Position numbers and translations under genes: made by a program. 64,000 nt of DNA, taken from contig CM082582.2 in the NCBI GenBank assembly GCA_040954595.2, positions 6,432,303-6,496,302 of the forward strand. Direction: 5' to 3'. Below are positions 2,853 to 30,200 of this stretch, in pieces (positions within the stretch are counted from its first letter, which is position 1; each line of letters starts with the position of its first letter). The notes beneath the pieces are model-generated. The model was not told the origin of the DNA. It did not search any database and was given only the letters and a program-made list of their open reading frames with translations. The DNA is from Balanoglossus misakiensis. Taxonomy: Eukaryota; Animalia; Hemichordata.

Positions 2853-2862
2853 GGGGATTTCC
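2853..2862 (+). promoter_or_regulatory. NF-kB (kappaB) consensus site upstream of kinase paralog A
   Basis: GGGGATTTCC fits GGGRNWYYCC and lies about 510 bp upstream of the ATG at 3376. Motif match only. Confidence 0.5.
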
Positions 2863-3111
2863 GCTGACATGTGTCACAGTGGTCCTACAGGCCGTAGTTT
2901 GTTAATGTTTAGTGGATCCTCGCGCAAACGAAAACAAATGGGGCGTTTCGCGTCCAATTCAAACAACTCTATTCCTGCCTGATCCTGTGCCGTGGTGCCG
3001 TACCCTGGTTCATGTCATTTGTTCAACGGTGTCCATATTTTGCACAACCAGATGTATACAATGGCTAAGTTTACCCCGGGAGTTTGCCAAATAATCTAAT
3101 TTTAGCTTTTG

Positions 3112-3122
3112 GGGGAATTCCC
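3112..3122 (+). promoter_or_regulatory. NF-kB (kappaB) site upstream of kinase paralog A
   Basis: GGGGAATTCCC about 255 bp upstream of the ATG. The same 11-mer, in the same orientation relative to the gene, lies about 235 bp upstream of paralog B's ATG. Confidence 0.6.
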
Positions 3123-3375
3123 GTGCATTACACCAATCCGGCCGCGTAACCACGCTTGCCTTGTAATACCTCTACAGACAAGCAGGACATAGGTGAAACC
3201 GACAGAGAGTAGGGGTATATTGCTCTAGGTTCCCCAAACGTTATATTTCAAGCATTATCTTTATTGCGAGCAAACACTCTGTCGTCAAAAACGGCAACAC
3301 AGAACTACTCTGTCTAACGAGGCCAAGCGCCTCGGTGTGATATACTTGATGACGCACTGTTCAGGTGTTTTCAAA

Positions 3376-6300
3376 ATGGCTACAGCAGAGGAAACTTGCG
3401 ATTCTATGCTCGGTTGGGGTGAGTACATTATATTGTGATTAAATTGCTTCGATGACACCGTGTGGCATTTAGGCCTATAGTTTGGACAGTGGTGTGAAGA
3501 TTTTCAAGATGGTTGGAGGGTAAGAAGACGCTGTTCTCCAGAGAACCTCGAGAAACATTCTTTGAGTGTTTATGGCTGCCACAGTGGCACAGCTTACAAA
3601 ACGAAAGGTCATTTGGGGGTTATTTGAAATAAAACTGATTATTCTGAAGGACCATATACAAAATAAATGGAGATAACCAATTTTAGTCTCGCAATTGATA
3701 CAGGCTTAAATGGGTGTAAAAGGAAAGAGGGATATGATGTGTAGACGTTCAATGGGCCCCAAAGTAGGCCTAGGTTTGAAGAATCAAGTAGGGACGGGAA
3801 ATTTCCAGATATAATTTTTTAGAACAGAGGTACTTTAAGAAACAATATATAATACAATTGATCTCCTCTGCCTTTACCAGATTTAAGGGAGCTTGGTCTA
3901 GGAAATGAACTTGTTCGGCAACTGGCATCTGTTCTGGACGACGATGACTCAAGGTGGCAGATGCTTGCTGAAAACCTCGGAATAGATGGGAAGACCAGCA
4001 AACGTATTGCGCAATGGAGCTTTGAGACGTGCACAAGCCCAACCGAAAATGTGATAACCGTCTACAAGAGCATGTCTCCAACTCCAACCTGGGGAGGGAT
4101 ATACCAAGCGCTTGAATGGATGGCTCAGGGTGGGGCGATGCGAGCGATGAAAGAACATGCCGACAAGCAGAGGTCAAAGTGCGGGGCTTCCACTGGCCAC
4201 CTGCAGGCGTATCACAATAAAACTCCGGGCAATCTGGGACGAAAATTGAAGAAGGGCATGTTGTCGGGGGAGTGCATGGACGCCCTGGGGAAGGTTCTCA
4301 ACCCCAGACACCCGCTTGGGTGCAACTGGAAGCTTCTCGCCCGCAAACTTGGCTACAGACAGGAAGTCATTCGAGATGCAGAAAGGCGGAAGTCCAACCC
4401 CACACTTCACATTCTGTTGCTATACCAATGCAAAACTAAAGCAACCCTGGGGATGCTGTACGAGATTTTACTCGGGATGGAGCGTAATGATGCCGTGTTG
4501 GTCCTGTGGGCCTACGATGAGCTTAAAGAGGGCGAGGAACCTTCACCGGACAGTGAGACTACATCTAAGCCAAAGGGGCACAGCTCAGAAACGGATGGTG
4601 CCAGTGGAAACACACTGTCAGATGATGAAGAGGAAGACGGTAGTGAGGACGATATGGACGATATGGATTTCAAGGACATGCTGTAAGCATGCATTTTTGC
4701 AGTGAATTCTGACTTGCACGAAACTGTCGCGAGAATATACTAGTATGTAGTAGTAAAACGTAGTGCAAGAAGTCAATAACTGTTGTCTGTTTTCCTTTCC
4801 AGTACACAAATGCTACAGATTCCCGAAATGAAAGAGCTTATGAAGGCTTTGGAACAGAGAGATGAAATGCTAAAGATGGGTCAGAATATGACCGGCATGT
4901 TAGGAAAAGCCATTGGTTGGCTTGGATGTCTGGCGGAGACTGCTGGTGAGTCAAGAAAAAAGTCACTGTGAATGGCTAGATGGTGTGGTGGAAAAATTTG
5001 ACCGTATGCCTTCAATGCAAGGTCTCTGGTACGAAATGTACTTGACAACTCTCGTTTCCTTGGACTATGCACGGACATGTATATATCCGCCATCAGAATT
5101 ATCCCTGTTTGATTACCGTAAGATCTGTACATGGATTGGATCTTACAGGTATGGATGTTGATCCCGAGGAAATAGGGTGCCCACTCGGTTCCCAGACGAA
5201 TGTGAACATTCATGGTGGCCAAGTACAATTCGGGCGTGTTAACCAAATAGTACAAGCTCTTCGTCAACTGGAGGGCAGCGCTGGACCAGGGCCTGCATTA
5301 ATCACGGGTCTACCCCATGAAGGTAAATTTGCACGACCTCGTAGACCGTTGTGCCAAATTTTAAAATATTGGTTTTATACTACATGTATGATATCTGGCT
5401 GATAAATACTATAGAACTCACGCCATCATGTTCTGAATATCGTAAATGAATCATGTACATCATACAGTCAGAACCTAGAAAACCTAGAGAACGAGACCCA
5501 ACAAATAGGCCGTTGTCCACAAATTCAAAAAATTAGTTCTTATGAATGTGAGAACAAACGCAAAGTGACCAACTACTCGATCTTTTGCTGTCGGTTTATG
5601 AATTTGCCCAAATTAACATATCCACATTACATCCTTCAAAGATTCACAATTTGCATTGCTTTCCACAGCCACCACGAGGACGAGGAAAATGGAAGGTGAG
5701 CTAGAGGAAATGGGTTTCCCCAAAGAGCATATAAAGAAGGTGTTGAAGCGGCATCCCAGGGTAGGTTTGTTTGTGCACTATAGGCCCCAGCTTAATTCTG
5801 TTGGCTCAAAACTGGCTGAATATATGTCATTTGCATGTGTGGATGTTTCAACGAAGATTCCTTTAGGTGAACAATCAGGCTTATCTCGTCATAGGTCTAA
5901 CAGTTCATAATTAGTGGGCACTAATTATGCCAAATTCTTAAATTGAAAGTCACATCTTCTTTTGTCTTGCAGGCAGACAAGGTTAAATTGATTCAATATC
6001 TTCTGAATATGAAAATGCGAGAACCAGACCGGGAAGTCAAAAGCGGGAAGCCCCGTAGGAGAAAATGGACCACAGAAGACAGTTCAGAGCTGCCTGGGGG
6101 CATGCACGACGAAGTCCCAAGGGGACCGAGAAAACCTGGGGATGGCGGCGAAGAAGAGCCACCGTTGCAACAGACCACTGTCGAAAAGGATGGCCCTGAG
6201 GCCGCAGATGAGCAGGCACGCGGACATCCGGTCCCTGAGGGGGATTCTCCGCCAGAGAGCCACGATCAAGAAAGCGTGGAGAGTTTGGGGGAGGGCGAGT

Positions 6301-8666
6301 TGGAAGATTCCTCTGATCAGCTGGCGAGCCAGTCACCTCTGAAGCATCCGGATAACACCGGAGGAGCTCAGGGAGAGATGCCCTGCAGTTTGGAGGCCAG
6401 TGGAGAACATGACGATTCCGCTGCCGTACAGGGGCAAATGTCCCCTGACAAGATTTCAAGTGGTGTGATTCAAGACCACCAGGAAATCAGTTCACTCGAT
6501 ATAGAACCATCGCACCAATCCAATGACAGTCCAACAGAACCTACGAGTGAATGTTCCGACATCTGTAGTGATGAGGAGTCAGTCCAGGCCGAAAATTCTG
6601 GGTGCAAACTCACCGAAAAAGAAACTACTGTAATGACGGTTGGTCCCGGCAGCCCAGACACAGCCACTGACCTCTCACTTACAGCTGACGCAGACAGCGG
6701 TATTTACTCTCTGTCCAGCGAACACATAACGGAAATTACAAGGAATCGCAGGACTATCATTTCTGACCAGGGTGCATATGGTCCAGTCTTTCAAGGTAAG
6801 TCTAAACTTATTCCAGTATTCGATTGTGATGCTGTTTTAAAAAGTGTGTGAATTTCATATCCTGGTAGTTAACAGTCATGCTAACGAACTGGTCTCTCGT
6901 TTGTCAGGGGTCTTTCCTTTCCAAGGTCCTCACATGGGAGCCAAGGTCGCTGTGAAAGTGCTGAGCGAGTCTGGAGACCACGGTGCAAAGGAATTTAGTA
7001 GGGTAGGGCGATACTACTGTTTATGCTCCATTATCTGTAACTTTTCGCCATATTTTTAGTATTCTTGCTTATGTATCTGCTGCAGTTCCTTGTTCAAATC
7101 AAGAAGCACAATGAAACGCCGGGCCCAATATCCAGCTTATGAACACATGCAACCACAACCTCAGTGGCAAGCACTACAGCCTCTCATGAGTTTTAAAATG
7201 TATACATCATCAGCGTGAGTTGATTGAATAGTGCTTGACAATTAAAAAACCAACATTAGCCAGCAGCGATTGTTTATTGACAGGAAAAAGATGTGGCTAC
7301 TGTCAAGCACCCCAATATCTTGCCAGTATATGGCGTATGTGATGAAGACAGGTATGTTTCTCGTATTATCAAAGTAACTCTTGTTCTTGTTATGCTGGTC
7401 TTCTGTTGATTGACTTTGAATGTTGGATTTGATTTAGCGAAACCCCGAGTATATTTATAAACACAATTCAGGTAAGTGGTATCATTTCATATACACTGGA
7501 ACTGTTTCGGATGAAGATAGGTATTTGTCTACAAATTCATGTATCATTTTAAATTGCTCCAAAAGTGGCTTGTTTCACGACATACTTATCAAGCTCTCAT
7601 CCAACCCCCCATTCTAACAGATGCATCCTGTATCCATACATGGAGAACAAAGATCTAGCCTGTCAGTTGAAAGTTGGGAATCCTGAACTAACATGGCGCA
7701 GGAGACTGGTCATAGCAATTGGCATTGCACGTGCGGTGTTGTGTCTGCATACACCCACCGAGCAGAGGTATCTAGCCTATATGCTCCAATTAGAATTTGC
7801 TGATGTTTCCTTTGAGTACTTAAAACAAAGGCTGTATTAGCGACTATAATGCCTGTTCGTGCATACGGCTACCAGATGGAAAATTTGTAATGCCTTGATT
7901 CTATTGGTTGGTCGCTCTATTAGCATTTGAGTTCCCCCACTCATGCCACATATCAAACGCTTTGATATGCTAAATACCTACGGCAACCAGATGGAAAATA
8001 GTAATGACTTCATTCTATTGGTTGGTCGCTCTATTAGCATTTGCATTCCCCCTCTGCTATTTCCGTGACACTTTTGCAAAAATCATAATGAGTAGTTCGT
8101 ACACATACGACGGTACGTCGTATACTCCCATGGGAGTCTCCACTAGACACTGCCAGTGATAACCATATAAGTAAGCCCGCTTATCCGTACATTTGTAGGC
8201 TTCTTAGAATTTTTCATCGCGATATCAAATCAGCTAACATCCTGCTGAATGGGTCGTGGTGGCCGTATTTAGGAGACACTGGGCTGACCAGAGAGATACC
8301 AGAGGAATGTGTGTACAAGTCGAGAACAGGTGGGGTACCTATGAGAACATTTGCATATTAAACACCATCTGGTCACTAAGAAAATCACTTGCACTGATTG
8401 TGATCACAATTCACAAATCATCCCAGGAAACGAATTTGCTGCACTCATGTGTTTCCATTTGACTTGTTTCTAAGGCACCAAATCCCATATCCCCGGCACA
8501 ATTGGATACAGCGATCCTTCATTGACAAACAAACCGGCGGGGTACTATGACGCAGCATGTGACGTGTACAGTTATGGCAAGGGTAAGAGATACTTAACAT
8601 TATTTTCAAATTAATTATAATGATATGCAATATATTGCAACAGACTTGAGTAGTTTCATAATGCCA

Positions 8667-8697
<31 letters not shown>

Positions 8698-8757
8698 CAT
8701 ACATACATACATACATACATACATACACTCACACTCACACTCACACTCACACACACA

Positions 8758-8820
<63 letters not shown>

Positions 8821-10227
8821 ACACATACATACATACATACATACATACATACATACATACATACATACATACATACATACATACATACATAGGACTACAT
8901 AAACAGAATTTTGCGTATAAAAATAATATAAAGTTTTCCCAAACACTTTTAGTCTTGTTAGAACTCTTCACTGGTACGCTGGCAAGTGCAACTGGCACAG
9001 ACGGTGATTTTGTTCACAACCAATGGGAGGACGATGGTCATTTTGAACAGGAAGATGAATTGGTGCAATTGGCTGATAACTCTAAATGTGTGGTGGGTAT
9101 CCAAAATACACACATTACTTTTCATGTACACTGATACAAGTTAATTGTCCACGCATAATGAGGTTCTTGGCCAACTCCATCATCTAACCTGCATAGCACT
9201 TTTCTTGCATTGCAGGGTTGGCCAGAAAGTGTAAAACAAGAAATTGCGAGAATCATCGTCTCGTGTTTGCTGAGGAAAAGAAGGGAGAGAGCAACATTTG
9301 ATGAAATTTGTGAAAAGTTGGAGGTAGGGCAGCGTTAACACTAACTTATAAAGAACCAGCACTGTTTCAGACGTGCACAATGTCCCTCTTTGTAGATGGC
9401 TTTTAGTACTCGAAGATTCGCTTGTGGCCCTGTTCTGGCAGAAACACATATTGTATATGAAGTATTCAAGTTCAGTATACAATCTAATCCCGTGTCACGG
9501 TCAATGCAACACTGAATTGACTTGAATTCATCCAATGTTATTGATGTTTCGAACTGAGAATGGACGTAAATGGCCACTGTGTCTTTCTCGCACTGAATAG
9601 GCATTGGCAGAGGACCACGGGGTGACACTTTTCGATGCTGCAAACTGCAGGAAGTGTTGCATGTGTCTCACAAACCCTGTCGGTAAGTTCAATCACCGGA
9701 AATGCATCAATCCGTCAACCAACAACTACTGCCTGTGATTGCACAATAGTATAGATTTGTCGCAGATTTTAGTTCATGGCACTGCAAGCCTTTGAATAGA
9801 TAGATACCCTTGGCCTGTCACGCAGTTATAGGGTTAGTTAGGGTATGGGGAATCTCTTGCAGATAATCAACTGCCTGCTCAACAACTTGCATTTGAACTT
9901 CTCGAACATGCACCAATTTTACTAGCATCATCAATACTCTTTCTTTCCCAACAGCTGATCAAGCTCTCCAGTGTGGATGTAAGGTTGTGTGTGCCGAGTG
10001 CATTCAGAATCGCAAATTTAACCACTTGGTTTGTCCGCAGCATGGACGTACACAACCAGCCAGTGGTAAGTTGTTGCACTGAAACATTCCATGACTGATA
10101 ATGTTCGTCTAAACCTGTACCATTTTATGTTCAATAGGAGTGTTGAAATACATCAATGATTAGGTCGCTTATCCACTCTTCCAATACTATTAAACGTTGA
10201 TTTCTTTCAGGTGAACAAAAATACTGA
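3376..10227 (+). CDS. Paralog A: tandem death domain - RHIM - UBA-like - acidic linker - IRAK/Pelle-like kinase - variant RING protein (about 1027 aa, 16 coding exons)
   Basis: Phase-consistent GT-AG exons: 3376-3418, 3881-4682, 4803-4945, 5149-5322, 5669-5760, 5973-6795, 6908-7002, 7284-7351, 7621-7767, 8199-8329, 8475-8582, 8953-9092, 9216-9323, 9601-9682, 9955-10065, 10211-10227 (last exon least certain). Death-domain motifs WQMLAENLG and NWKLLARKLGY..ERNDAV. RHIM NVNIHGGQVQFGRVNQI. UBA-like LEEMGFPKEHIKKVL. Kinase motifs GAYGPVFQG, VAVK, HPNIL, LTWRRRLVIAIGIARAVLCLH, HRDIKSANILL, GDTGL, GTIGYSDP, DVYSYG. C-terminal CCMC..CGC..CAEC..CPQH. Confidence 0.88.
5199..5249 (+). other. RHIM (RIP homotypic interaction motif) coding segment, paralog A
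   Basis: Translates NVNIHGGQVQFGRVNQI. The core tetrad VQFG resembles (I/V)Q(I/V/L)G, with the typical upstream aliphatic residue and downstream N at +3. Confidence 0.75.
7864..8043. repeat. Intronic imperfect direct duplication of about 65 bp
   Basis: TACGGC(T/A)ACCAGATGGAAAAT...ATTCTATTGGTTGGTCGCTCTATTAGCATTTG at 7864-7929 and 7979-8043. Confidence 0.8.
8668..8891. repeat. Compound microsatellite (ACAT)n-(AC)n-(ACAT)n
   Basis: Directly visible in an intron of paralog A. It accounts for the spurious HTYI and MYVC ORFs. Confidence 0.97.
9655..10043 (+). other. Variant RING-type zinc finger coding segment (split by one intron), paralog A
   Basis: Spliced translation CCMCLTNPVADQALQCGCKVVCAECIQNRKFNHLVCPQH has RING-like ligand spacing, with Cys at ligand 4 and His at ligand 8, and the CP of the last pair retained. 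Confidence 0.72.
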
Positions 10228-10700
10228 TGCTGAAAAATCAACAAACACCTGCAAACTATCATAAGACGTTTATCTTAAAAGCATGGAGATCTGATGCATG
10301 ACAATATATTACTCAGAAGACGCCGGCAGTACCAAGCAGTTTATAAGTGTCTGAAAAATGAATACCTACCCAAGAATGCTTAGGTTTCTATAGCTATGAA
10401 GTTGTTCCTATCTCACACATGTATTTCAAATTTCCCCATCCCATCTCAACTGGCGTATCCCTTTTTAGAGACTTGGGATTTTAAAAACAACGCTCATTTT
10501 TAGTTTATTAGTAAAACTTCTCGTATTTCAGTAGAGGCTTAACTGTAAGCTGTGATACATTTGCCTCAATTCGCTTTCAACTCATATGTCATTGGATTTG
10601 ATACCTTACCGATTCACCTAGCATGAATGTTGACACATAAGTAATAGAGCTCATGGTGTTAACAACAGTTGGGGCATATGACGGCAATCCCAAAATACAA

Positions 10701-10737
10701 AATAAAACATACACAAAAGTTAAAATTGACATTTATT
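10701..10737. terminator. Opposed polyadenylation signals of the convergent kinase paralogs
   Basis: AATAAA on + at 10701-10706 and on - at 10737-10732, between the two stop codons. Motif match only. Confidence 0.45.
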
Positions 10738-11703
10738 CAAAAGTGTTTTAAGGCGACAACCGCATAGTAATTAAAAATCATTATACAATGATAGATATCT
10801 TACATCTTATATCTGAAAAATACACATGGATTTAAAGTCATTACCGACTGTGGAAATTTTCCAAACATGGATTCATGTACATGTAATTGAAAGCTAAGGA
10901 GTCTCTAACTCACTGACTACGACACAATTCAATCTTTTTGCAGTTTTTCATAGTTGTTTTTTAATGGAAAAGATTTGATCATGTTATATCAAGCAAAAAC
11001 CTATTCCACATACTGTGATCACCAACTAATAATGTTTGATGACTTGAATTTAAAAAACTCAGCAAAAATAATTAAAGTAACTCATCTTGGCAGACACATT
11101 CCCCACTTATAACTTCAAAGTCTGAAGTACATGTAATAAAACATTATACTGGATCAACAGGAAAAATATGCAAGTGTATTATGAAGTGCTCAATGGTGAC
11201 AAGAACTGGTAGGCCTGCTGCAATTGGCTTCCATGCCAACATCCCAAATGTTGGATACTTTCTCTAAGCTTCTGTATCTTTCACTTGCTTGAGTGCACAC
11301 ACTCTTTGACCAGTTTCCACAGCCAAGCCTACAATTTGTCCGTGTATGGTAGAAATTCCACCCTTTAGATTTCCCTGTTTATAGACTCATTCCTGCAAAA
11401 TCAACATTAAAATGCAGATCAAGAACAAGATCATTTTCATATTCAAAATATGCATAACTGATTGATATGTGAAATTGGCATTTTCAGATATACGTACTGT
11501 TGCCATGATTACACCAAATCAGATATGCAAAGTTTACAAAATCTTCTTGGGTTACCCCCAGGAACATGCCTACCAAATTTCAAAGCAATTTGACAAGCTG
11601 TTTCAAAGAAAATGAAAGCACTAAAATTATTTATACCGAGATCTTTAAATCTCATTAAAACATATTAAATGAATATTCAACTCACCAGGAGAACACATCC
11701 TGT

Positions 11704-14700
11704 TTATTTGTCAACAGGAACAGTGATATTGTTCTTTTCAGCTAAGGCCTATTGAAAACAAAATAAGTAGGATTCAACTGCTGCACACTTAATTATAGAC
11801 ACTTCCTTCTATAACATTACACTGTGCTTTTTAAATGTTGATGCAATCTGTACCACACAACACAAGTATGCTAACCAATTATGATATTTGACTTAAGAGG
11901 TTTTTAAATAATCACAGAGACAAACTTATATACATCCAGAGTATATACAAGTATAAGCCCAATCATGCATTATGACCCCAGTAGTAGGGTGCTTTCTTCC
12001 AGAACATTGGGCCCAATTACACAACTATAGATTTTTGCTGTCCAAACAGTGCGCCAATTACTTGCAAACTAATTGTATTTCACACGACGAAAACAATATG
12101 GGACTTTTGATACAGAACAAACAATAATACAAAAATTATGTTCAACATCTGATTATACTTAGCAAAGATACCTCTAATTTCTTGCACGTGTCTTCTGTCG
12201 TGGATCGCTTCTTTCGTGCTGGATTCAAACATGAGATCACAATCTCTGCAAATTCTTTAGTTACAGCATTTTCTTGTGGATTAGGCCATCCCTGATTTTC
12301 AAGAGAACATGACAATTTTTCCAGTAATGTTTTTGTGGTAATAGTACTAAATCATGCATCATATGACATGTAAATTGCAAAAATTAACAAAATGAAGAGG
12401 ACAAGGCTAGACTGTATGTGGAGCCTAGCGAAATAACACTTAAGTCTTGATTCTAGACTATCATAAAATGAATTAAATCCAATTAACATACCACGGACGA
12501 TTCAACGGCCAATTCACACAGCATGTCAGGGTCAGAAAGACAACCATCATCAATCCATGTATTGTGCATGTAGTCTCCATCCTTTTTATCTTGGGCTAAC
12601 ACATTGGTTAAAAGTTCCATAAAAACTGTAAAATAGTCAAATAGTGCAGGTTTTATCACATCATACAAAGCAGGTTTCACACCCAGGCTGGAGTCACAAC
12701 CCCTTGCACAGAAATCAAACTTGAAAGTAAATATACCACACCAGGAACAGTTCTCCAGGTAAACTTAAGGATTAGACACCAAAGTAACATAAAAAATTCA
12801 CAAATGAAAATACTATTTCACGCACCTTTCCCCAGACTGTAAATATCGCAATAATCGTCATAGTAATTAGGGGGTTTTAAAATCAGTACATGGTCTTGAT
12901 ATCCACGTGTTCCACTGATACACAACTGAGAACCTAAACAGAGCAAAATAAAATGGTTCCATTAACATGTGTGCATGGTTTGGCGACATCATGTGGTTAA
13001 AATGGACAGTGCATTGGTAGATACTGGTATTTGCTTTCAGTCCATTCATCATTTTCAAGAAACTTAACAATGTTTGTTTGTAACAAATCATTGTCAATAG
13101 TCTCCAAACAGAGGATGAAGTTTATATGAAATGACCACAGGTATTATATAGGATCTGATCACTAAACAAATCACAAAAATATGTATAAATGTATGTACAT
13201 TATATAGAGTTGCATGCATATACTTGTACAAACATACATACAAACATACAAACATACATACATACATACATACATACATACATACATACATACATACATA
13301 CATACATACATACATACATACATACATACATACATACATACATACATACATACATACATACATAAATATGGACATGTACACATTAATCAATTTAACCTGT
13401 CATGGAGAGGTGTGATTTTTCCATAGCTGCTTCTCTAGTCAGTCCAGTGTCTCCTAAGTATGCCCTCCATAACGCATCAAGAAGTACATTAGCAGACTTG
13501 ATATCACGGTGATAGATCTTGAATTTCCTGTGGTACATTTATTCAGAAAAGAAAACAATGAATAGTGTCAAACTGCAACCTTCCAAACTCCAACTAACAA
13601 TATTCAGTACTTGATAAACTCTGCATATTTTTGCAGCAGAACTAAAGTTTAACATTTGGGAAATACAATTTCATGTTTCAATGAAATTCATCAGTGATAA
13701 TGTTGTAATGGTACTTTAGAAATTAGCAACTAAGTAAAATTTTCTCAGCAGTATCTGTAAGAAGTCACTCTGTGACATATCATTCCATGTCTTCACGTCA
13801 AAAATCAAAAACACACTGAAACTAAGCATAGCATAGTGTGTCTGGATATCATGTATGAATTATTGCATTACACCAGGGACCTCTACCTGTCTCCAGTTGG
13901 TGCAAGAAGGCAATGCAAAGCTCTGCACAGACAAATAGCGATCACCACTCTTCTCTGCCACGTCAATTCCGGATTTTTCTCTTTGATTTGATGAGCCAAG
14001 TCTCGATTCTTCATGTATGGATACACTATGCTCATAGGATATCTGTGAAAACATCAAAACAGGACAGTGTCTTAATTTTCACATGTTTGGTAGTGCTTAA
14101 AATTGGGTGTTTAATCATTGGTCATTAAGCTTAAATGCCATGATTTTCAAATTACTAGTATTACAATCCTACATATGCTTAGTATTGAACATTAAAAATA
14201 ATAACTTGTTTCAAATGACATTCCTAACTTAACTTTGAAAAAGTTGATAACAGCTAGTCAGCAGTGTGATGTAAATGTAGACCTCATCAAAAAGAACACA
14301 CTTCATGTAAATGACAAGAGAGTAATAAAGGAAATAATCGCAAGTCATTCACACCAAAGCACACATTGCAGGTAAACAAGAAACCCAGAACATTACCCTT
14401 CATCTTCACAAACCCCTAACACAGGCAAAATGTTTGCATGCTTAACACCAGCAACACTCTTCTCCTGAAATAAACAATTGGACAAATTATTTGTCTTAGT
14501 ATACACCATATCTCACAAATATCCGGTTATTGTATGATGTTCTGTAAGGTGACTACAAATCTTCACTTTTGAAATCTATGTAACCAACAGACAAACGTTT
14601 TTCAATCATCTGTAGGATAGCAGCCACTATTTTCAGAATGAAGAAAATGTCTCCTGACTATGATACTCTTCAAAAGACAGAGGGTATTGCAGAACTTGTC

Positions 14701-17700
14701 AAATAAAGAAAACTATTTGAAAATAATGGCATCTTTCTGTCCCTTTAATTGTTTATATACATGAACTCCGGCCAAAATGTCTCATTACCTGCAAGGGTAA
14801 AACAAAACAGAGCAGAACAATATCCATGTATCTACTTGTAAATCTATAGTTATCATTTCAACAAATAACTTGGCGAGTTGTTTCCACAAAACCTCCTACC
14901 CGTTTATACTCTCTTTCTCCATGAGTTCCACTGGTGTCAAGGATCTTCACGGCCACCTCCCTACCATTAAACACTCCTGTGACAAAGTAGAACAAGACCT
15001 TGTTAACTGTCACAACAGTGACGAGTACCATCCCTACTAAGTAACTAAAGTAAAGAATGGTAGCCACTCATTTCAGGCATAGGCATGTTTGAGTTATGGT
15101 TCTGGATACATAAAACTAAAATTGCTCAGACAAACCATGTACAAACTATTATTAAGTTATCCTTGTGCCACCTTTGAACACAAGACGATTAAGGTATTTA
15201 TCATTTAGAGCTTGGAACAAATGAACATGCAATGAAGGATTGCAAGACGGTGAAGGAGGAAGAAGATATACTCCTAGTATACAGCGTTTTTTCACCTTAA
15301 CCTAAGGCCAAGATACAGACAGTAGTAGGCAGGATACTTATAAATGAAACATGCCTTTATAAACTGGTCCAAATGCACCTTCAGAGGAAATAATTTGGTC
15401 TTCAGATCTGTTGTTGGTGATTTGTTGAATGTCCGCGGCATGCAAGACATATACACCAGTCTCTAATGTCTTCAGTGATGAGGGACTTTGGAGTTTTGAT
15501 GCCTCTCTCCCCTCTTCACCCTCACCCTCGATATTTAACTGGTGGCTTGTCAAGTTTGCTGAAGCACCTACAGCAGCAGCAATGTCACCTGGCTCTGGCA
15601 ACGTTCGTGCAACTGCATCTTCATTCGCGGCGCTAGGTTCCTGCAGCGATGGCATTCTGACATCCGGGATTGTATCTTCGGAAGGCGTCGCAGTGGGTGC
15701 ACCTGGCGTTGACATTGGTGACTCACTGCTTGCCATTTCAACAGGAGGCTCACTACCGACACTCCTTAACCTGAAATCCGTTTCATCTTCTGCTGCTGCC
15801 CTATCCATCTCTGAATCATTCCCTGGTTTTGATGGAGCCACGTCATCTTCTCTGTCCTGTCCTCTTGGTGGATTTCTATCAAAATCTGTCTGACCAGGAA
15901 CTCCATGGATGCCAACCTCTTGTGTTTCTTGAGGTGGATCATATGTACCTGTAGGCCAATCAGGGTTACCATCTATGCCACTTTGTGGTCGACCACCTCC
16001 TGGTGCCAGTAACTTATCAAATGACTCATCTTCAGGTGTTTCTTTCGCTTCTTCATGAACAATAGCAGAGTAGTTTGCTCCTGGCATTTGAGTGTGCTTC
16101 TTCAGTGACTTTGCCTCTGCAGCCCTTGTGTCATCTCGTCTTGGATCTGTCTGGGCCTGAATACCACGAGCTACCAGAGTATTATCTGAATCACTATTAT
16201 CTTCAGTCTGTGGCTGTAAGCTGGAATCAGGAACGACGTGTGTCACCTCTGATAAAGCTGCCGTTCTGAGACTGCCTGCCATCACCTCCTCCCCACCTCG
16301 TTGGGGAACTTCAGAGTCTTCAAATCTCACGCGTTGGTCTCTAGGAGTTGGCACTGTCGCTTCTGGAGCATTTTGCACTGAAGGCTGTGACGCATCACGA
16401 TGTGCTGCTGCGTGAGTGGGCACATCTCTGGGGACTGGTTCTATATCTTCTCTGGTACCTCCGCCAACAGTGTCCTGATTTGCGGCTCTGTGGTCAAGTT
16501 CTTCCGTTTGTTGAGGCCCAGGCCCTTCTGTTTGCGGCTGTGGGACATCTCTTCTGGTGAGTTGGTCTGCTGGTAGGTTCTGGGTTTGCAAGGAGGACCG
16601 TGGTACCTGTTGGTTGTTAGGGCTTGCAGACATGTCTATTCGTACAGGTGCTGTGCCTACACATGGCACAATGCCTACTGCTCCTTGCCGATCATCTGCG
16701 CCAGGTCCAGTAATATTTCTTGGTACCGGCCGTTGATCATCTTGACCAGGCGGTTGAATCTCTCTACCTTCCCCTCTATACCTTACTTCAGGGATTGGAC
16801 CATGGACAGTTTTACCAGGGGATCCCCTCTGATCTACATATTGAAGATCTGCTGGGAGTTGTTCGTCTACAGGCTGCTGCTGAGACAACTCTGCTTTTTC
16901 AAAGAACAGGTTTGCCAATTCATTTGCATCTGCCTATTGACAAATATAAAGGATAATACACGGTTAGCATAACTTACTATTATAAGCTGCAAGACAAGTT
17001 GGACAATTGTAAATTTGTATCATTGTACTTCTACATATCATGGTTGTAATCCTATCCTTGCATCTCATTATTTTCAGTGATTTAAAAACCAGTACAAGTC
17101 CAGTACCTGTGCTCTTTTTAGGAGTGGCTAACATCAGATGTTTACTGATCTTTATGTACTTTTACACAAAATAATTGTTCATTACACACAGACTTTTGCT
17201 TTATTTATCGTGCAGTTCATCAAAATAAAATTGATGGCATTCCCACCTCAGGATGCTTTTCAATCAACGTGTTAATTTCCTTTTCTGACAACCCAAGAGT
17301 TTTGAGGTGATCTTTCTTGATTGCAGTAGTCTCTTGCATTTGCATCAACAACCTGTCTGCTTGTGGAGCTTGTTCGCCTACACTGGGAGGAACAACTCTC
17401 GGTGCATCTATTGTCAATTGAAAAAATATATGAGTGAACATATTCAACATGACACTGAATTTGCAAGTTTGATTTTTTGACACAGTGTGTGTCGTAATCC
17501 AGTGACAAGAGAAATAGGTGTCGAGTATCTAACTTACTTGTTCTGGCGTCTCCTCCACCCTTCTTCTTACTCTTTTGTGGCTTTTTTGATGGTCTCTGAG
17601 TAGTTATGATTTGATTGTAATTTCCAATCTGTACATTGCCTCCAGTGATATTCATGACTGGAGGCGTGGACTGCAGAGGTGGCATTTGTACATCCATCCA

Positions 17701-20542
17701 GGATTCTTCAATAAAAATATGATATACAAAAATCCCTTTTGAATACCACAATATCAATTACAAGAAAACCTCTTGTACATGCACAAATGTATTATTCAAC
17801 CTCTGACTGTTACTGTACGTTAAAATGTAAACAGGTTAAATAATAAAGTGGTGCCGCACCCGTTTATTGAATCGGCCTCTAGTTGTAAGAGTACTATAAC
17901 ACAACTAAGCATGACATGCTCACATGCATATTCTAATTGTGACAAAATTCTAAATGGTGTGTTGTCTGTCAGCTAAGTTTGAGGAGAAATTTGAATTACA
18001 TTGTACATGTATTTGAGAATATGATAAAACTGGCAGCTCTTGGGGTTTTAAAAGGGATATTATATTCAACCAATGGACTATGTACATGAGCTGTTTATAA
18101 ATGGAAAAAAATCCAAAATTGCATGTCAATTTTACTTTATCATTAACGATTTATAAAACGAGAAAAATAATAGTTTAGTTCTACAATGGTATGAGACATT
18201 CCCACGTGAAAAAAAGAAATACAAATTTTGTCTTACCCATCTCTTCATCCTTATCAGATGCAAGGCTAAAGGCTCTATCAAACAAGTTATCCACGTCACT
18301 AATGTCTGTGAAAATACATAAAACTTGACAGCTCAGTCTTTTTCACCGATTTTCAAAGGTACAAACACCCCAACATCAATGAATAAACATCAAACATTTT
18401 ATGTGGCAAAACTAATGAGTGGTACTCACAACCACAATATGCAACATCATAATGTACCTACCACCTGTTCTACTTGCTTGCCTTGTAGCTCTCCTGGCTT
18501 TGTCATCTCTAATACCCAAACCTTCTAACTGTTCTACTACTGTTTTTATATCATCAGGTGTTGGATGCCATGATCTGTGAAAAAGATCAAATGATACATA
18601 AGTGTGTATCCTATAGTACATTAAATGTTACTGTGAAAATGTCTATCCTTTGGTGTGATGTATCCTCCACTGCTGAAACAGATTTAGTGCAAAAAAGTAC
18701 AGTACCCTCTCCATTGGTCCAAGGTTCAACTTTTTCACAATATTTTTCAAAAGCTATCAGTTGGACCAGTTGGGATGGGATACGTGAACCATTAAATGGA
18801 ATATACCTGGCTGTTCTTGGTCTCTGCTCAGACATTTGTCTTGCTGTTTGTCTCAGGACTGGTCGGTCACTGTAGGCAGTATAGGGCAAGCTTTTAGTTG
18901 CTGGTGGGCTCAGACTATCTCTGACGGATTCCTCTTCAGTCAATTCTCCGTTTTTCCACAACAGGTAGATGACATCAAACCTTGGCATGGCCGCCAAAGC
19001 ACTGCATAGTTCCCCGATTGTAGCGCCCAATTTGCACTGGAAATCCTGTAGCAATGCAAGGGCCTTGTTACTCTTTAGCTCAAACTGGGAAATGTGATTT
19101 GGATGGTACCTCAATCTATCGGCCAGCAGTTTCCAGTCTTTGCGCAGCGGGTGTGGCACATTGAGAAGCTTGCTCACTTCGCTCAAGCAGCTATGACCCA
19201 ATTGTTTAGCCCTCAGCGTGCGCTGGGGATTAGCTGGTCTGTCCCATCCAACCGGCAGGCTGTCTGAAGCACTCTCTGATGAAAGATTTAACTCCCGCAC
19301 ATGTACCACTAATCTTTCCTCTGCATCAGCCCTGTTCATCGTTCTCAATGCCTTGTGCAAGCCTTGCCATGTTGGCAGCTCACTTTGCGTTCGGTAAATT
19401 TTCAGCACGCACTCTGTTGGGGATTTTTCGAGTTCCAGGGTTGAAATTATGTGGGAATCATCGTATCCCAGATGCACGGCTAGCATTCTCCAGTCATTTC
19501 CCAGAGGGTTTTCGGGATCCAAGTACATGGACAAATCAATGATGCAGGAGTGGGGCAAAGGATGATCCCTCAAGTCTGAAAGATTGCAAGAGAACATACC
19601 ATATATTTTGGCATCAACTAAGTGGATTTGCTCAACCCTTACCGGTATTACTGAACACTTTGCAGGCAGACAGACAGACCGACAGACAGACAGACCAGCA
19701 AATCTTGACTCACTGACAGATTACCCACAACACAAACTATCAGAGGTCGCGCTTGGATTTTTGGCTGCGAGTATTTTTTGACGCGTCCATAGAAAATGAT
19801 GTGTCAAATTTTTCCTCCCCAACATTGTTGAGTTAATTTGCTTTTTGAGCTCTGTATTTTATGAAATGTTCTAACAGGGAAGGGGGACACCCCCTCCCAC
19901 ATCCACCCCCTTAACTTCTCTTGATTTACTATGTCTGCCAACTATCATAATGACTTGTATTTTCAGTTTATTCACGTCTTATTTTAATTATTTAAATTTA
20001 TTCAGATATGCAAATTGTCAGTTATTCATTCGCTAAGTTTTTGAAAGTTTGCATGGGGGGTCACCCACTTTTCAATTTCCAATGACGGGGGTGGGGATCA
20101 CCCCCTTTTTGATATAAAAAAATAGAATCCACCCCCAACCCCCGGCTAAAGAAACTGACCAGTCCCTTAATAGGGTCATGATAGGTTGCCAAAACAACTA
20201 GTAACTATGCGTATCATAGTAAATTTTTGTACTTGACACAAGTCCACTGCGCTGTTCACCAAGTTGTCCACGGGTGCTCGTATTATTAATGGAATAGTCT
20301 ATCGAGGGCGACGTGCGAGATTACGAGTTCGAGGCCGAAGGCCGATCGACCCTCTTCGGCCTTGATCGGCCTCACACTTACACTCTCGGACATCCGGGCC
20401 CTTGATCGATAAAGACTATCCAATCACGATCATTGTGTCGTTTATCCTTCTTGTCATGGCAGAAAGGAGACGCGTGAACATGAACTTGAATAGTTCTTCC
20501 TTACTTACCCCAAGCAGGAAGTAATGTTGCCATTTCTCCCAT
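11704..20542 (-). CDS. Paralog B: tandem death domain - UBA-like - RHIM - UBA-like - long acidic linker - IRAK/Pelle-like kinase, no RING (about 1243 aa, 15 coding exons)
   Basis: Phase-consistent exons (minus): 20542-20509, 19575-18807, 18574-18462, 18305-18237, 17705-17538, 17407-17247, 16933-15355 (GC donor), 14976-14900, 14464-14397, 14042-13887, 13527-13397, 12933-12826, 12625-12492, 12291-12172, 11748-11704. Motifs NDWRMLAVHLGY..MNRADA, DWKLLADRLRY, RHIM MNITGGNVQIGNYNQI, EGAFGPVYKG, VAVK, LTWQRRVVIAI, HRDIKSANVLL, GDTGL, GTRGYQD, DIYSLG. Kinase exons of 68, 131 and 108 nt equal those of paralog A. Confidence 0.88.
13232..13364. repeat. (ACAT)n microsatellite
   Basis: Directly visible in an intron of paralog B. 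Confidence 0.97.
17608..17658 (-). other. RHIM coding segment, paralog B
   Basis: Translates VMNITGGNVQIGNYNQI, with a canonical VQIG core close to the RIPK1 (IQIG) and RIPK3 (VQVG) tetrads. Confidence 0.85.
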
Positions 20543-20774
20543 TGTTTTCTGTGATACGTGGTCTGGTCTGATACGGCAGGTGAAGTTTTTAAAACTTCCC
20601 AATGTACTTCAGACTGTTCTTCACCTTTAACTGTAAATTATGTCTCGATCACTGTACTCTTCATGTATTTTGTGTGCACGAAAATATAGATTGTCAGTAG
20701 CTACCGGTTTTTCTTACGTGTGCTAAACATCTAACCACCAACTAACGATGGTACATATTCAATGATGATATATT

Positions 20775-20808
20775 GGGAATTCCCCGCAAAATTCCCGGAA
20801 AACCGGAA
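20775..20808 (-). promoter_or_regulatory. Clustered kappaB, STAT (GAS) and ETS-like motifs upstream of paralog B
   Basis: GGGAATTCCCC (20775-20785), TTCCCGGAA (20792-20800) and CCGGAA (20803-20808), 235-265 bp upstream of the ATG at 20542. Confidence 0.6.
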
Positions 20809-22077: not shown

Positions 22078-24050
22078 CTAATCGGTATATTTCTTCACAT
22101 TATTATATCTGTATAACGGCCTCTTTCGTCGAAGAAGGAAAATTGTCATGTGCACGTGTTCTTGATGATCACAAAACGGCCTTATCATTTGCATTAGCAA
22201 ACTAAACCCGCCACTCACCATTAATCGAACTCTGAAATGAGAGTTCATGCCTTTCCGTCGTCTTCTGCCTGGCGGCGGTGTTCGGACGTCCCCTCTCTCG
22301 AAGACGCTAACGAAACGATTGGGATTGTGGACGGATTCAAACTGCATGTAATGTCCATCTACCAGTCTGTAGCGGAATCGACACTCGGGACCACCCTTTC
22401 CCTGAAATCCGATAACAATCATGATTATGTTTCGCTTAAAAAGGAAAGGTCGTGTGGAGTGACCGTGTTTGAACTGCACAAAATCTCATCGGAAGCTGAA
22501 GTATGGCATTGCTGAAAATTCGATATATCTGTACATGTATACACAGGCGGCCTGACCAATCTATGACAACACGATACTTCACCATTCTCTGGGTTAAAAT
22601 TGCTCAGAAAGCGTTTTTGTGCCGTCGTGACATGCCGAATAACCGGCAATACTAATACCTAGGAACTCCCGATAAAGTTTCTCTGCGTGTACACAAATGT
22701 TTCGTTACGGTTGAGAGTTCAATAAACGAACACAATTAAGCCATTGGTTTTAGGATACTGTCTTAATATCGAGCCAAACTCCTGGAATGCATATATCAAT
22801 AGCCGAGGAAGGCGGGATACAGTCACCATCCGAGGACGGGGTAACAATCAGGTTTATTGTCGCAACAACGAGAAAGTCTTCATCCCGACACAGGATATGC
22901 TATGCGCTTTATACGGTAATGGAGAGGGTATAGTGCCGCTCAACTGTTAATAGCTTAAATGAGGACGAAAAGCAGTCACTTACATTTGCCGAGAGGTCTC
23001 CGTCGCGAAGAATGAGAAAATTGACCGGGTTGGCCAGACATCTTAGAGTCACAATGTCATCGCCGTTGATATTAGTTACAATAAACATAGCTAGAACGAA
23101 AAGCACATACAACGTACTTTTAATATTAAATGGAGATTACATTTTACATAAAACGTGCTCTCTCTCTCTCTTTCTCTCTCTCTGTTACATGTAACACGAC
23201 AGCAAAAATATTAAGAAACGCCAATAAAATATTTACGGTTTTCTGATGGTAAAGAATTTCTTTGACGAGATCTCATGTCAGTGACCTGGATTTACTTACA
23301 TTGGACGCCGTTTGTACCCCCTCCATCAATCTGTCCTGTCCTGGCATGTACGCGGAGACACTTGCCGCTTGACCGAGACACAAACTGTATGACATTCCCC
23401 GTTGACAAATCGCGTACCTATAGTAATGGATGACACAAAGCTTGACGTTCGAACAATCAATATAACCACAATATCATATATTGTTTCAGTATCAGTAAAT
23501 ACAGACTCGGCTGGTTAGAATCGACGTACGCCGCACACCTTGTCTACAAAAATAGATCGCTTTTTGGTGGGAATGGCTCGGGACGTCAATCCTGGTCTAT
23601 CGTACAAGTCAATTCATACTAGAATGTCGTGGTTAAATTGTGTAGTCGGGAGACGAGCGGTGAGTGCTCGGGTGAAACACTAAAGTTGTCTGAGTGGGAC
23701 AATCGAAGGGGGAAATATTGAAAGTTATAATACAGTAACTTACGTACTATCAGTACATATAAATGAAAGCGTATACACTCACCGTAATTCCAACAGGGTG
23801 TTCCACGCCGTATAGACCAATACTTGAGTTATGGTACACTACTGTCTGTGACGTCAAATGAATTGAAGAAAAAAGATAAATGAACCATTAAAATGTACAT
23901 TAATTTTTGTCAGTGTTCCTGTTAATTCGTGCATATAGTATTAAAATTGGCTATTTGGCAAACAAGATACGCAGACTTTACCTTTTGAAGTTCACTTGAT
24001 CTCAGGGGAGCTCCATAACCATACGCACTGTAGGGCCTTGCAGCTGCCAT
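22078..24050 (-). CDS. Leaderless FGF-like beta-trefoil protein (about 194 aa)
   Basis: Exons 24050-23982, 23845-23783, 23417-23300, 23090-22984, 22401-22219, 22122-22078 splice in frame. Three beta-trefoil repeats: NVIQFVSRSSGKCLRVHARTGQIDG..F, DIVTLRCLANPVNFLILRDGDLSANGKGGPECRF and YMQFESVHNPNRFVSVFERGDV..HF. No hydrophobic signal peptide. The two 5' exons are less certain. Confidence 0.7.
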
Positions 24051-27265: not shown

Positions 27266-30200
27266 ATGGCGGACGTTGAGCTTTATGAAGTCCTTGGCGT
27301 TAACAAAAACGCAACTGACGCCGAAATTAAGAAGGTATGCTGGTTTTATCCTCACGTGTCTTGTTCTGCGAATATGTGTTCGAAAATTTGTCCATGAATC
27401 GTCTGATTTGATGTCCACGCCGCTGTGAAACGTGGTAGAAATGCGAATACCAATTTACGAAGATCATTGTGCGTATTGTTCATTTCGCCGGTATGATACT
27501 ACATCGAGTGCGTGCCATAAGCGGAAATGACCTAGCGCATCATGTCTTCACGTGCTCTCGCTCAAATCCACCGCAAGCCAATGTCAGTCACCCTGAATAT
27601 CGCTATGTTCACTTTATAATCCACTACCCGTCACAAGTATTTCCATATTGAGTTTCCCTAATGTTTTACGCCATTAAATTTGGCACAAGATCTAGATCAC
27701 TTTACGACTACGGTAGACATAATGTCATTTCTTTAGGCAAGAATCCCCCCCCCCCCCGCACCGGGATTAATTCACCCATGACAATGAAGGGTGAAGTTGT
27801 TGAGAAAGTATGTTTATTCTAAATGCATGATTTTAGCGTGGAAAAGGGAAAGGGAAATGTGAGATTATTTCATTGCCTGTTGTGAGTTCATCGTCGACTC
27901 TGACTCCAACCTTGGCCATGGACAAACTCTTTTTGTATAATCTACGCTCATAGGTTCAAGTATGCATTGCTGTGTGTGGTTTTCATGTTTCTGTATATTA
28001 TTTTTTTTTTGCAGGCATACAGAAAATTAGCCAAGGAATTTCATCCAGACAAGAACCCTCAACATGGAGAGAAGGTATAAAAGCACTATAATTTTGTTGC
28101 AGATAACAGCATTTCTGACCTTATTTTAATAAGAAAAATTCTCCTCTTTGAGAAAGCCATAAAATGAACATCGGAATATGATGTGCTCATTTGTTTGTGA
28201 TTGAGGTATTTTTAGCTGCCAGTAAACACCTATATATAGCAGTGGATTTTTACCAAATTGGTTGTATATGTATGTACTGACCGTTACGTATGTATGCATG
28301 TACATACATTTGTCTATCCATCTGGTGACTACAAAAATTTCTCAACCACTGGATGGCATCACTTCAAAAGTTAACAAATACATATAATTATATTTATGGT
28401 ATAAACTAATTGATATTATTCCCTTTATTAACAGTTCAAGGAAATAAGTTTTGCTTATGAAGTTCTTTCAAACCCTGAAAAGCGTGAAACATATGATCAG
28501 TATGGCATGGAAGGAATTCGAGGTGAAACAGGACCTGATATGTTTGGTGAGTACACGTAAAACATGCAACGTGTGATTATTTAACCCTTTCACCACCATG
28601 GTGTGGTCCAAATCCATTGTTTTCTTCTTACTTCTTAACATGTACTTGATATGATATACTGTGAGTTTAAATTTTCGATTCTATGCTTAAGTGTTTTATA
28701 ATTATTTCTTTTTTGTTACCACAGGTGGTGAAGACATTTTCTCTCATCTATTTGGGGGTGGTATGTTTGGTGGAATGTCTGGTTTTGGCGGTGGCGGGAG
28801 ACGAAGGAAACAAAGGGGGGAAGACACAGTTCATCCACTAAGGTAATAATAAGTGAGAGTGGGTTTTCTGACAAGTCATGTATTTGCTCTCCTTATAGTT
28901 AGCAGCAGGATTGTCACTGAGTTAATGATGAGGCCTTCAGTTATGGTTAAATATACAAATATACAAACTGTAGCATGCACATATTGTGTACCAAAAAAAA
29001 TTGGCTGAAGAGAATTTTTGTTGACTGACAGAAACCATGTAAATAGTACTTTTATTTTCTTTCCTTTGCGAGTCTGACAGTGTTTCTTAGTGTTTTGGGC
29101 GCTGCAGTATTTGTACCAATCCCGACCTTATTCTTGCATTTTGTTTAGGGTAACATTGGAAGACCTGTATAATGGCAAAACGGCCAAGTTACAATTGAGC
29201 AAGAATATTATATGTCGTATCTGCAACGGGTAAGTCAGTCTTGCTGAATAGATACATATGAACATCAATAAGACATGGAAATGACCATCAGTTCAACCTG
29301 TATCCCATCCGTCCATCCACCCATCCATTAACTGTATTTTTGATGTGTCACAGGCAAGGCGGCAAGCAGGGTGCAATGCAGACTTGCAGGGTGTGTCACG
29401 GCCGTGGTGTCAAGGTCACAATCCGGCAACTCGGCCCCGGCATGGTGCAGCAGATGCAGTCGGTGTGTCCCGAGTGCCACGGCGAAGGTAAGGCTCAGAT
29501 CTCTCCTCGCTGAAAGATAGCATGCAGACGAGTTTAACTCTGTCACTCCATATGGTGTGAAGACAGACAGAGAGCACTGTGTTGACTATCTGTGAAGCAG
29601 CAGTAATCTTTCTCTCACTCTATCGACCAGTGATGTGATAATGTACCCTGTTCACTTCACAGGCGAAACAATTAATGAAAAAGACAGGTGTAAAACTTGT
29701 CATGGTAAGAAAGTGGTGAAAGAGTCGAAAATACTACAAGTGCACGTGGAAAAGGGCATGAAGGATGGGCAGAAAATTACATTCCGCTGGGAAGGTGACC
29801 AAACGGTAAGTGATATCCTGTCTTGTCCGTACATGCATTTTTTTACTGTGCAGATTCTGATGTGTCTGCAGGCTGCCGTGGGTGGGACTGTGTATTCTTG
29901 ATATCACAAAAAAGGTCTAGAAGGACGGCTTTGTCCCTTTAAGCCTTTCACCCATCAGTTCCGTCTTCAGAGGTCTAACCTTACCTTAGAAAACAATGGG
30001 TTTGGACTGAACCATGGTGGTTAAAGGAGTTAACAGACTGCTTGAGAGGGGAAGCGATGAAGAGCCCAGTCTGTTCAGAAGCAGGGCAGCGTAGTCAAAA
30101 CCTGGTCAACACGAAACTTACCCGACGCAGTCCACTGGTACTTGTCGGACGTGAACACCAAATCAGCTGCTTTCCCTCAGCCTGAGCGCCGAGCCTAACT

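Follow-up and report, generated by a model that had tools for sequence, protein, structure and literature searches.

The 64,000-nucleotide (nt) stretch of the acorn worm Balanoglossus misakiensis analyzed here (contig CM082582.2, forward-strand positions 6,432,303 to 6,496,302; hereafter the window) contains two open, intact, convergent paralogous genes, A and B, which lie tail-to-tail with their ends ~1.5 kb apart. As predicted from the genomic sequence, with splice sites set by coordinates on both strands, each gene encodes a kinase preceded by two death domains (DDs), a RHIM-like motif, UBA-like helices and an acidic linker, and the A protein ends in a RING-like finger. By sequence, A and B belong to a family common to acorn worms and amphioxus (four genera), a conserved and apparently undescribed variant of the IRAK/Pelle kind. 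The gene models are:

3376..10227, + strand: gene A, 16 coding exons, 1027 amino acids (aa), DD-DD-RHIM-like-UBA-like-linker-kinase-RING
3376-3418, 3881-4682, 4803-4945, 5149-5322, 5669-5760, 5973-6795, 6908-7002, 7284-7351, + strand: gene A exons 1-8
7621-7767, 8199-8329, 8475-8582, 8953-9092, 9216-9323, 9601-9682, 9955-10065, 10211-10227, + strand: gene A exons 9-16
11704..20542, − strand: gene B, 15 coding exons, 1243 aa, DD-DD-UBA-like-RHIM-like-UBA-like-linker-kinase, no RING
20542-20509, 19575-18807, 18574-18462, 18305-18237, 17705-17538, 17407-17247, 16933-15355, 14976-14900, − strand: gene B exons 1-8
14464-14397, 14042-13887, 13527-13397, 12933-12826, 12625-12492, 12291-12172, 11748-11704, − strand: gene B exons 9-15

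Translation of either exon chain meets zero internal stops, and all introns are of the GT-AG type save for one GC donor in B, after position 15355. The initial annotation of this DNA had described two intact multi-exon paralogues arranged tail-to-tail, and the open, phase-matched exon chains bear this out; the span that it noted, 3376-20542, takes in both genes fully. It had also given the kinase exons shared sizes and phases. The phases of the seven kinase exons are indeed identical in 7/7, but the sizes agree in only three (68, 131 and 108 nt), the other A/B pairs measuring 95/77, 147/156, 140/134 and 108/120 nt. The two proteins are 54% identical in the kinase and about 35-36% identical in the DD pairs, and codon positions 1, 2 and 3 of the catalytic exon agree at 70, 74 and 44%, respectively, as expected for coding sequence under selection.

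That all of these domains belong to one chain, as first proposed, is upheld by an independent NCBI model from P. flava, XP_070576017.1 (1007 aa), which matches gene A exon by exon and spans its whole architecture. If the models were mis-joined, the DD/RHIM exons and the kinase exons would lie on separate transcripts, and two records could be taken in that sense: the P. flava B orthologue is annotated as two half-length isoforms, XP_070576015.1 (N-terminal half) and XP_070576016.1 (C-terminal half), and a Saccoglossus model ends after the UBA exon. We find this hardly credible, given that the P. flava break point falls inside a single open 1579-nt exon of B, so that a frame break in that record would most simply account for the split, and that the annotations of P. 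flava A, G. talaboti and amphioxus contain full-length chains. In gene A, a skip from exon 1 (3376-3418) to exon 4 (5149-5322) is in frame, phase 1 to phase 1, and a shorter P. flava isoform of XP_070576017.1 joins exon 1 to the RHIM exon, omits both DDs and continues to the RING.

Relatives in acorn worms and amphioxus

A DD-DD profile made from the second exons of A and B and run against 1.84 billion representatives gave 226 matches, four of them at E <= 1e-30 and the next at 5.3e-15. All four are from hemichordates: P. flava XP_070576019.1 and XP_070576015.1, S. kowalevskii XP_077869118.1 and G. talaboti XP_077983102.1. The family was found by this full HMMER scan; a word-index search with the A DD-DD exon among longer proteins yielded none in 1629 candidates. 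Three records of small DD-DD-RING proteins without a kinase also occur among the death-domain matches. A search with the catalytic exons (19 matches) added P. flava XP_070576016.1 and XP_070576018.1, whose cluster holds XP_070576017.1. G. talaboti XP_077983102.1, like the two P. flava halves, supports the B model, and the Saccoglossus model XP_077869118.1 is the one with its end behind the UBA exon. In P. flava the five accession numbers run consecutively and belong to a contig of equal length, which suggests that the genes are neighbours there too. One of them, XP_070576019.1, is a kinase-less paralogue with a duplicated DD-DD block (four DDs), one RHIM-like motif, three UBA-like repeats and a Gly/Asp-rich tail, and it has no counterpart in the 64-kb window.

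Among the 120 listed of 225 matches (404-1288 aa) to the kinase and RING together are two amphioxus proteins. In XP_078608206.1 a DD, UBA-like helices, two VQIG motifs, a linker, a kinase (38% identity) and the family-type RING variant are followed, at about residues 1030-1279, by a Peptidase_C14 domain (E 5.7e-11) with its His and Cys motifs, SGHG and DACHS, intact; we take these to be metacaspase-like rather than caspase-like, and this part of the protein has no PDB sequence match at E <= 1. One amphioxus isoform stops before the RING and the protease. No echinoderm, tunicate, vertebrate or protostome member appears among the 120 listed of these 225 matches or among the 19 catalytic-exon matches, which is weak evidence of absence, and a metagenome scan gave 38 pattern matches, none of them confirmed. 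The NCBI names of family members are "uncharacterized" or "hypothetical".

The kinase and its class

6700..9323, + strand: kinase domain of A, with a glycine-rich loop (G-loop) lacking the first Gly, VAVK, alphaC Glu, Tyr gatekeeper, HRDIKSAN, DTG and GTIGYSDP
12172..15460, − strand: kinase domain of B, with features as in A, DTG and GTRGYQDH

The IRAK/Pelle signatures LTWxRRxxIA, HRDIKSAN and GTxGY, picked out in the initial annotation, are all present in both genes. In each of the six aligned full kinases of the family the VAVK-type Lys, the alphaC Glu, the Tyr gatekeeper, HRDIKSAN and the DxG Asp are kept, together with an activation-loop S-x-[ST]-G, and the kinases are of the RD type. The gatekeeper lies in an I/L-V/L-Y-x-Y segment (6/6) in register with the RLK hinge, and a Tyr at this position is described as an IRAK/Pelle trait (PMC3498205). 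The assignment to the IRAK/Pelle class stands, and what had escaped notice is that DFG is replaced by DTG in both genes. Across the kinases compiled, DFG occurs in 130, DTG in 8, DAG in 12, DPG in 4 and DLG in 1; outside the family the non-DFG forms belong almost entirely to protist-type kinases, most of which have a RING after the kinase. DPG is seen in JAK pseudokinase domains.

The best 60 of 1017 PDB sequence matches of the P. flava protein are all plant RLK/Pelle kinases or IRAK1/3/4, plant RLK/Pelle and IRAK4 ranking first, followed by IRAK1 and IRAK3, and include no RIPK. Nor is there a RIPK among the best 60 of 116 matches of the amphioxus protein, where EGFR and PLK4 already occur. 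We modelled the shorter P. flava isoform from 69 aligned sequences (mean predicted local distance difference test score, pLDDT, 63.9; mostly 80-98 in the kinase), and comparison of the fold, which covered the kinase only, gave Z scores of 30.8 for IRAK1, tied within 1 with a plant RLCK, 29.5 for IRAK4, 24.7 for RIPK3 and 23.0 for RIPK2, with agreement from Foldseek; the alignment consisted mostly of RLK-type kinases and may favour an IRAK/RLK match. The kinase is of the IRAK/RLK-Pelle class, not the RIPK class.

A kinase tree of 47 domains comprised seven from the family, seven of protist type, three arthropod Tube-type and 30 hand-picked from plants, and contained no vertebrate IRAK, Pelle or RIPK; one Artemia domain was left out and the B. 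belcheri domain was cut by hand. Support is 100/100 for the family, 100/99 for the hemichordate members, 100/97 for B with its P. flava orthologue and 94/69 for A with its own. The family stands separate from the three arthropod Tube-type kinases, and a possible sister relation to Triparma-type kinase-RINGs has support of 45/92. The nearest Atlas cluster for the kinase and RING is a haptophyte-rich one of kinase plus zf-C3HC4_3 (0.99), which we treat as a lead only. Among Triparma and other RLK/IRAK-like kinases with a C3HC4 RING, one group has the family's G-loop variant and the other has DAG or DTG for DFG.

A and B may well represent an extra IRAK-related lineage of invertebrate deuterostomes, as judged from a tree without vertebrate IRAKs and Pelle. 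That composition of the tree is one reason to consider instead fast-evolving Pelle/IRAK1 orthologues that have added modules and form no separate lineage; the others are that IRAK1 is the top structural match, level with the plant RLCK, and that only two IRAK lineages are reported from amphioxus, namely Pelle and IRAK4 (PMC11087794). By sequence, however, plant RLKs and IRAK4 outscore IRAK1, and the family lies apart from the Tube-type kinases. Moreover, a separate IRAK4 with one DD (598 aa) exists in S. kowalevskii (PMC3498205), the kinase-then-RING order, the DTG/DAG motifs and the G-loop variant are instead common to protist-type kinases, and NCBI labels no family member "Pelle" or "IRAK". 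We consider such orthology decidedly improbable.

Assembly, ubiquitin-related and upstream elements

3881..4682, + strand: A exon 2, two death domains and an acidic tail (Pfam Death, two stretches, E 2.2e-18)
18807..19575, − strand: B exon 2, two death domains (Pfam Death, two stretches, E 1.5e-20)
5223..5234, + strand: RHIM-like core VQFG in A exon 4
17623..17634, − strand: RHIM-like core VQIG in B exon 5
5669..6015, + strand: UBA-like three-helix unit of A with an MGF loop, exon 5 and the start of exon 6 (Pfam UBA, E 0.0028)
18237..18574, − strand: first UBA-like repeat of B with a degenerate loop, LGI, exons 3-4 (Pfam UBA_7, E 0.029)
16900..17407, − strand: second UBA-like repeat of B with a degenerate loop, LGL, exon 6 and the start of exon 7 (from alignment)
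9601..10065, + strand: RING-like finger of A in two exons, C-x2-C-x11-C-x-C-x3-C-x2-C-x10-C-x2-H (Pfam zf-C3HC4_3, E 0.031, second RING exon)
11704..11748, − strand: last exon of B, a remnant of the first RING exon, 14 codons and then a stop

Two Pfam Death stretches in each exon 2 confirm the two N-terminal DDs proposed for each gene, and the second DD (DD2) of A has the MyD88 DD as its closest PDB match (E 4.8e-08). The pair cannot be kept as part of the conserved core, since amphioxus XP_078608206.1 has a single Pfam Death domain with no clear kinship to either hemichordate DD. The tandem DDs are, on these predictions, a hemichordate-only state; the amphioxus relative has the remaining parts with one DD, and we therefore define the predicted family core as RHIM-like motif, UBA-like helices, linker, kinase and RING.

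Known carriers of RHIMs are RIPK1/3, TRIF, ZBP1 and insect Imd-pathway proteins. Tested against the tetrad (V/I)Q(V/I/L/C)G with flanking Asn and hydrophobic residues, VQIG of B meets the core and VQFG of A is a variant outside the strict consensus; P. flava A has VQMG and the four-DD paralogue XP_070576019.1 has VIIG. The pattern N-I-x-G-G-x-V-Q-(I/F/M)-G-x-x-N, its Val and Gly invariant, underlies the alignment of ten family segments, so that a RHIM-like core stands at the equivalent position in 10/10 aligned family proteins, with diverging flanks. Among 306 other proteins, 145,731 residues in total, the strict pattern has a single occurrence, and it turns up in 6/2000 (A) and 7/2000 (B) shuffled sequences. 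The family profile aligns in register, weakly (E 0.16), with the RIPK3 RHIM chain 6jpd, and Pfam RHIM (PF12721) matches 2/10 segments at best E 0.013. Of the RHIM first proposed, the conserved core holds and support from Pfam stays below threshold. The published core fits VQIG of B (PMC9444067), VQFG is a natural, functional tetrad variant of RIPK3 (PMC12119088), and the pattern around the B core resembles the chicken RIP1 line in Figure S1 of Kajava et al. 2014 (PMC4262963). Rated by its conservation, the motif is probably a RHIM, and amyloid formation is what such a motif would predict.

Assembly of a "necrosome type", the initial wording, goes further than a RHIM allows. A RHIM does not imply necroptosis: non-mammalian RIPK1 (lizard, lamprey, mussel) needs its RHIM for NF-kappaB activation (PMC12119088). 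A cell-death platform would have DD and RHIM build a necrosome- or PIDDosome-like fibre to activate a lytic or proteolytic effector, which would be part of the chain in amphioxus and a protein of its own in acorn worms. It draws on the intact His and Cys motifs of the Peptidase_C14 domain in which the amphioxus relative ends, and on the RHIM/HET-s amyloids that drive death in mammals and fungi (PMC4262963). We nevertheless consider it improbable: no hemichordate member examined carries an effector domain, the amphioxus caspase-like part is without a PDB match at E <= 1, an amphioxus isoform ends before the RING and protease, and the kinase is not RIPK-type.

The UBA-like repeats of the initial annotation stand in part. 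Unit A has its three-helix fold and MGF loop, and in the model of its P. flava orthologue the helices at 84-96, 101-110 and 116-131 reach pLDDT 81-93; all Pfam scores lie below the cut-off, the loops of B are without MGF, and its second repeat has no Pfam UBA match. The helices would likely hold ubiquitin chains.

The RING had been noted in one copy, and we find this to reflect loss from the other, not a gain. The last exon of B, which had gone unnoticed, matches the first RING exon with 7/13 identity to the start of the P. flava RING exon, and P. flava B keeps its RING (Pfam zf-C3HC4_3, E 0.0011), so the RING is ancestral to both copies. No second RING exon of B was found at the protein or DNA level, the best DNA scores being reached by 56/300 and 272/300 shuffles. 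Read-through after B exon 14 was considered as well, and the spliced exon at 11748 is preferred because of its strong acceptor and the 7/13 identity; the RING is absent in both versions. The G. talaboti model and one amphioxus isoform end at the intron after the kinase, likewise without a RING. We read the RING as ancestral and detachable, its predicted loss from B being due to the early stop.

Eight Zn ligands with IAP/MIB spacing, seven Cys and a terminal His, are present in 5/5 family RINGs of both phyla, the His being shifted in all five from ligand position 4 to position 8. A linchpin Arg or Lys after the last ligand is a feature of RING E3 ligases; that residue is Gly or His in 5/5 family RINGs and Arg in 4/4 aligned protist-type kinase-RINGs. 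In the P. flava model the RING has pLDDT 79-83. The swapped ligands and the missing linchpin Arg make ligase activity doubtful, and with the RING also missing from B and two other family models, "ubiquitin ligation" can no longer be ascribed to the family as it first was. The RING may be a weak or partner-dependent ligase, or a docking finger only.

Upstream of both genes lie kappaB sites:

3112..3122, + strand: kappaB palindrome GGGGAATTCCC, 254-264 bp before the A ATG
2853..2862, + strand: second kappaB-consensus site upstream of A
20775..20785, − strand: identical kappaB palindrome GGGGAATTCCC, 233-243 bp before the B ATG

The 11-bp GGGGAATTCCC is the best local match between the upstream 600 bp of A and of B. 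The consensus GGGRNWYYCC matches the window 21 times, counted by strand, where 2.9 would be expected, and 8 of the 11 merged sites in the 64 kb fall within 2853-20785; a site is present in 9% of 600-bp stretches of the window and in 130/2000 and 38/2000 shuffled promoters, a test that rests on one consensus, picked after the sites were seen. As consensus matches, the sites point to NF-kappaB control of A and B.

Elsewhere in the window, an element of ~430 bp at 1783-2214 has perfectly matching inverted repeats of 14 nt at its ends (GTGACCAGGTGTG type) and contains a 47-nt direct repeat as well as a TATA-like box; it is probably a mobile element of small size. Kinase introns of A and B hold long microsatellites, (ATAC)n/(AC)n, at 8668-8892 and 13226-13363. 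An FGF-like gene at 22078-24000 (− strand; Pfam FGF, E 0.0078 on one exon) adjoins the upstream region of B, and beyond it are housekeeping neighbours: DnaJ C-terminal exons at 29596-30491 (+ strand), a DUF3689 gene at 36900-43000 (− strand), presumably TRPC4AP-like, and a ThiF/E1 gene at 45000-50600 (− strand), which we take to be UBA2/SAE2-like.

Predicted function and known systems

We propose, with about an even chance of being right, that the A and B proteins are NF-kappaB-inducible scaffold kinases that amplify innate immune signalling. Challenge would induce both genes through NF-kappaB, as the kappaB sites before both ATGs lead us to infer, and DD2, being closest to the MyD88 DD, would dock into a MyD88-type DD adaptor assembly. 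The RHIM-like motif, going by the motif alone, would polymerise and stack the kinases while the UBA-like unit holds ubiquitin chains, and the resulting clustering would permit trans-phosphorylation of the activation-loop S-x-[ST]-G and switch on the RD kinase. The outcome would be more NF-kappaB output, not lysis, which we favour because the RHIM of lizard, lamprey and mussel RIPK1 activates NF-kappaB (PMC12119088).

Besides the make-up of the model alignment and the choice of kappaB consensus, several results tell against this proposal. All six kinases have lost the first Gly of the G-loop (GAYG in A) and the Glu after GYxDP and have DTG, DAG or DPG for DFG, departures with which activity may be low. 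Scores of the amphioxus DD against those of hemichordates range only from 25 to 56, so that the docking partner may differ between phyla. RHIM, UBA and RING are all below Pfam cut-offs: Pfam RHIM matches neither the A nor the B segment, three tofu-6 chains score above RIPK3 in the RHIM profile search, and the best Pfam UBA score is 17.9 bits against a cut-off of 22.4, the MGF loop being kept in A and absent from both B repeats. Finally, a conserved C-terminal TRAF6-binding motif of the IRAK1/2/M type, PxExx(aromatic/acidic), is absent; the pattern occurs twice in A and once in B, never after the kinase, and not at all in the P. flava B halves or amphioxus.

The kinase departures also lend themselves to the opposite role, an IRAK-M-like inducible brake in which a crippled kinase occupies DD, RHIM and ubiquitin platforms and damps signalling. 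The kappaB sites before both genes would suit such a brake, as would the three non-canonical kinase features (DPG in amphioxus among them), the existence of the kinase-less P. flava paralogue XP_070576019.1 and the finding that Pelle and IRAK4 of amphioxus have a mild suppressive effect on MyD88 signalling (PMC11087794). Catalytic residues, the RD motif and the activation-loop Ser/Thr are nonetheless kept in 6/6 kinases of two phyla, and the kinase is the best conserved part of the protein, with 68% identity between P. flava and A as against 47% for the DDs. We judge a brake unlikely, though it deserves serious attention beside the amplifying scaffold.

Two lineages of IRAKs have been described, as kinases with a single DD. 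Our broader proposal, which is tentative and on the whole doubtful, is that the family would be a third IRAK-related lineage, present in the deuterostome ancestor, missing from vertebrates and built on an ancient kinase-RING unit that protists still have. By combining DD, RHIM and ubiquitin reading and writing in one chain, together with a caspase-like protease in amphioxus, it would be the one-protein equivalent of the MyD88-IRAK-TRAF6 and RIPK-cIAP-caspase complexes. If true, a single protein would unite the Toll/MyD88 arm with the RHIM/amyloid arm and hint at how early deuterostomes connected them. As naturally occurring test cases the family provides an RD kinase in which DTG, DAG or DPG replaces DFG, and a RING whose ligands are seven Cys and a terminal His. 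The surprise is lessened by how commonly domains are shuffled in amphioxus and acorn worm immune genes and by every function being inferred. In the article texts surveyed, we found no description of a DD-RHIM-UBA-IRAK-kinase-RING protein, in keeping with the initial annotation, which knew of no characterised protein of such architecture.

With IRAK1-4, Pelle and the Tube-like kinases the family shares an N-terminal DD, a low-complexity linker, a Tyr gatekeeper, HRDIKSAN and the LTW helix. Unlike them, A and B have two DDs, with DD2 nearer to the MyD88 DD than to the IRAK DD, and the family has a RHIM-like motif, UBA-like repeats, a C-terminal RING, DTG/DAG/DPG and a G-loop without its first Gly, and no conserved C-terminal TRAF6 motifs. 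Like RIPK1, it holds DD, RHIM and kinase in one chain, and RHIM-dependent signalling is common to RIPK1, RIPK3 and insect Imd; in RIPK1, however, the order is reversed (kinase-RHIM-DD, PMC12119088) and the kinase class differs. The Branchiostoma RHIM proteins of Kajava et al. 2014 (PMC4262963) resemble the family in having a RHIM beside DDs in invertebrate deuterostomes and were read as innate-immune; the text excerpts of that article name no member with an IRAK-type kinase, UBA or RING, and its Figure 1 could include a family member. Protist-type kinase-RINGs (Triparma, the haptophyte-rich cluster) and plant kinase-U-box proteins likewise have an RLK/IRAK-like kinase, followed in the protists by an IAP/MIB-type RING, but the protist-type proteins have canonical C3HC4 ligands and a linchpin Arg and no DD, RHIM or UBA. 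A parallel to the pairing of UBA with IAP-type RING spacing in one signalling protein comes from cIAP1/2, which combine UBA and RING in NF-kappaB and death signalling; unlike cIAP1/2, the family has neither BIR nor CARD, its RING ligands are swapped, and a kinase is present.

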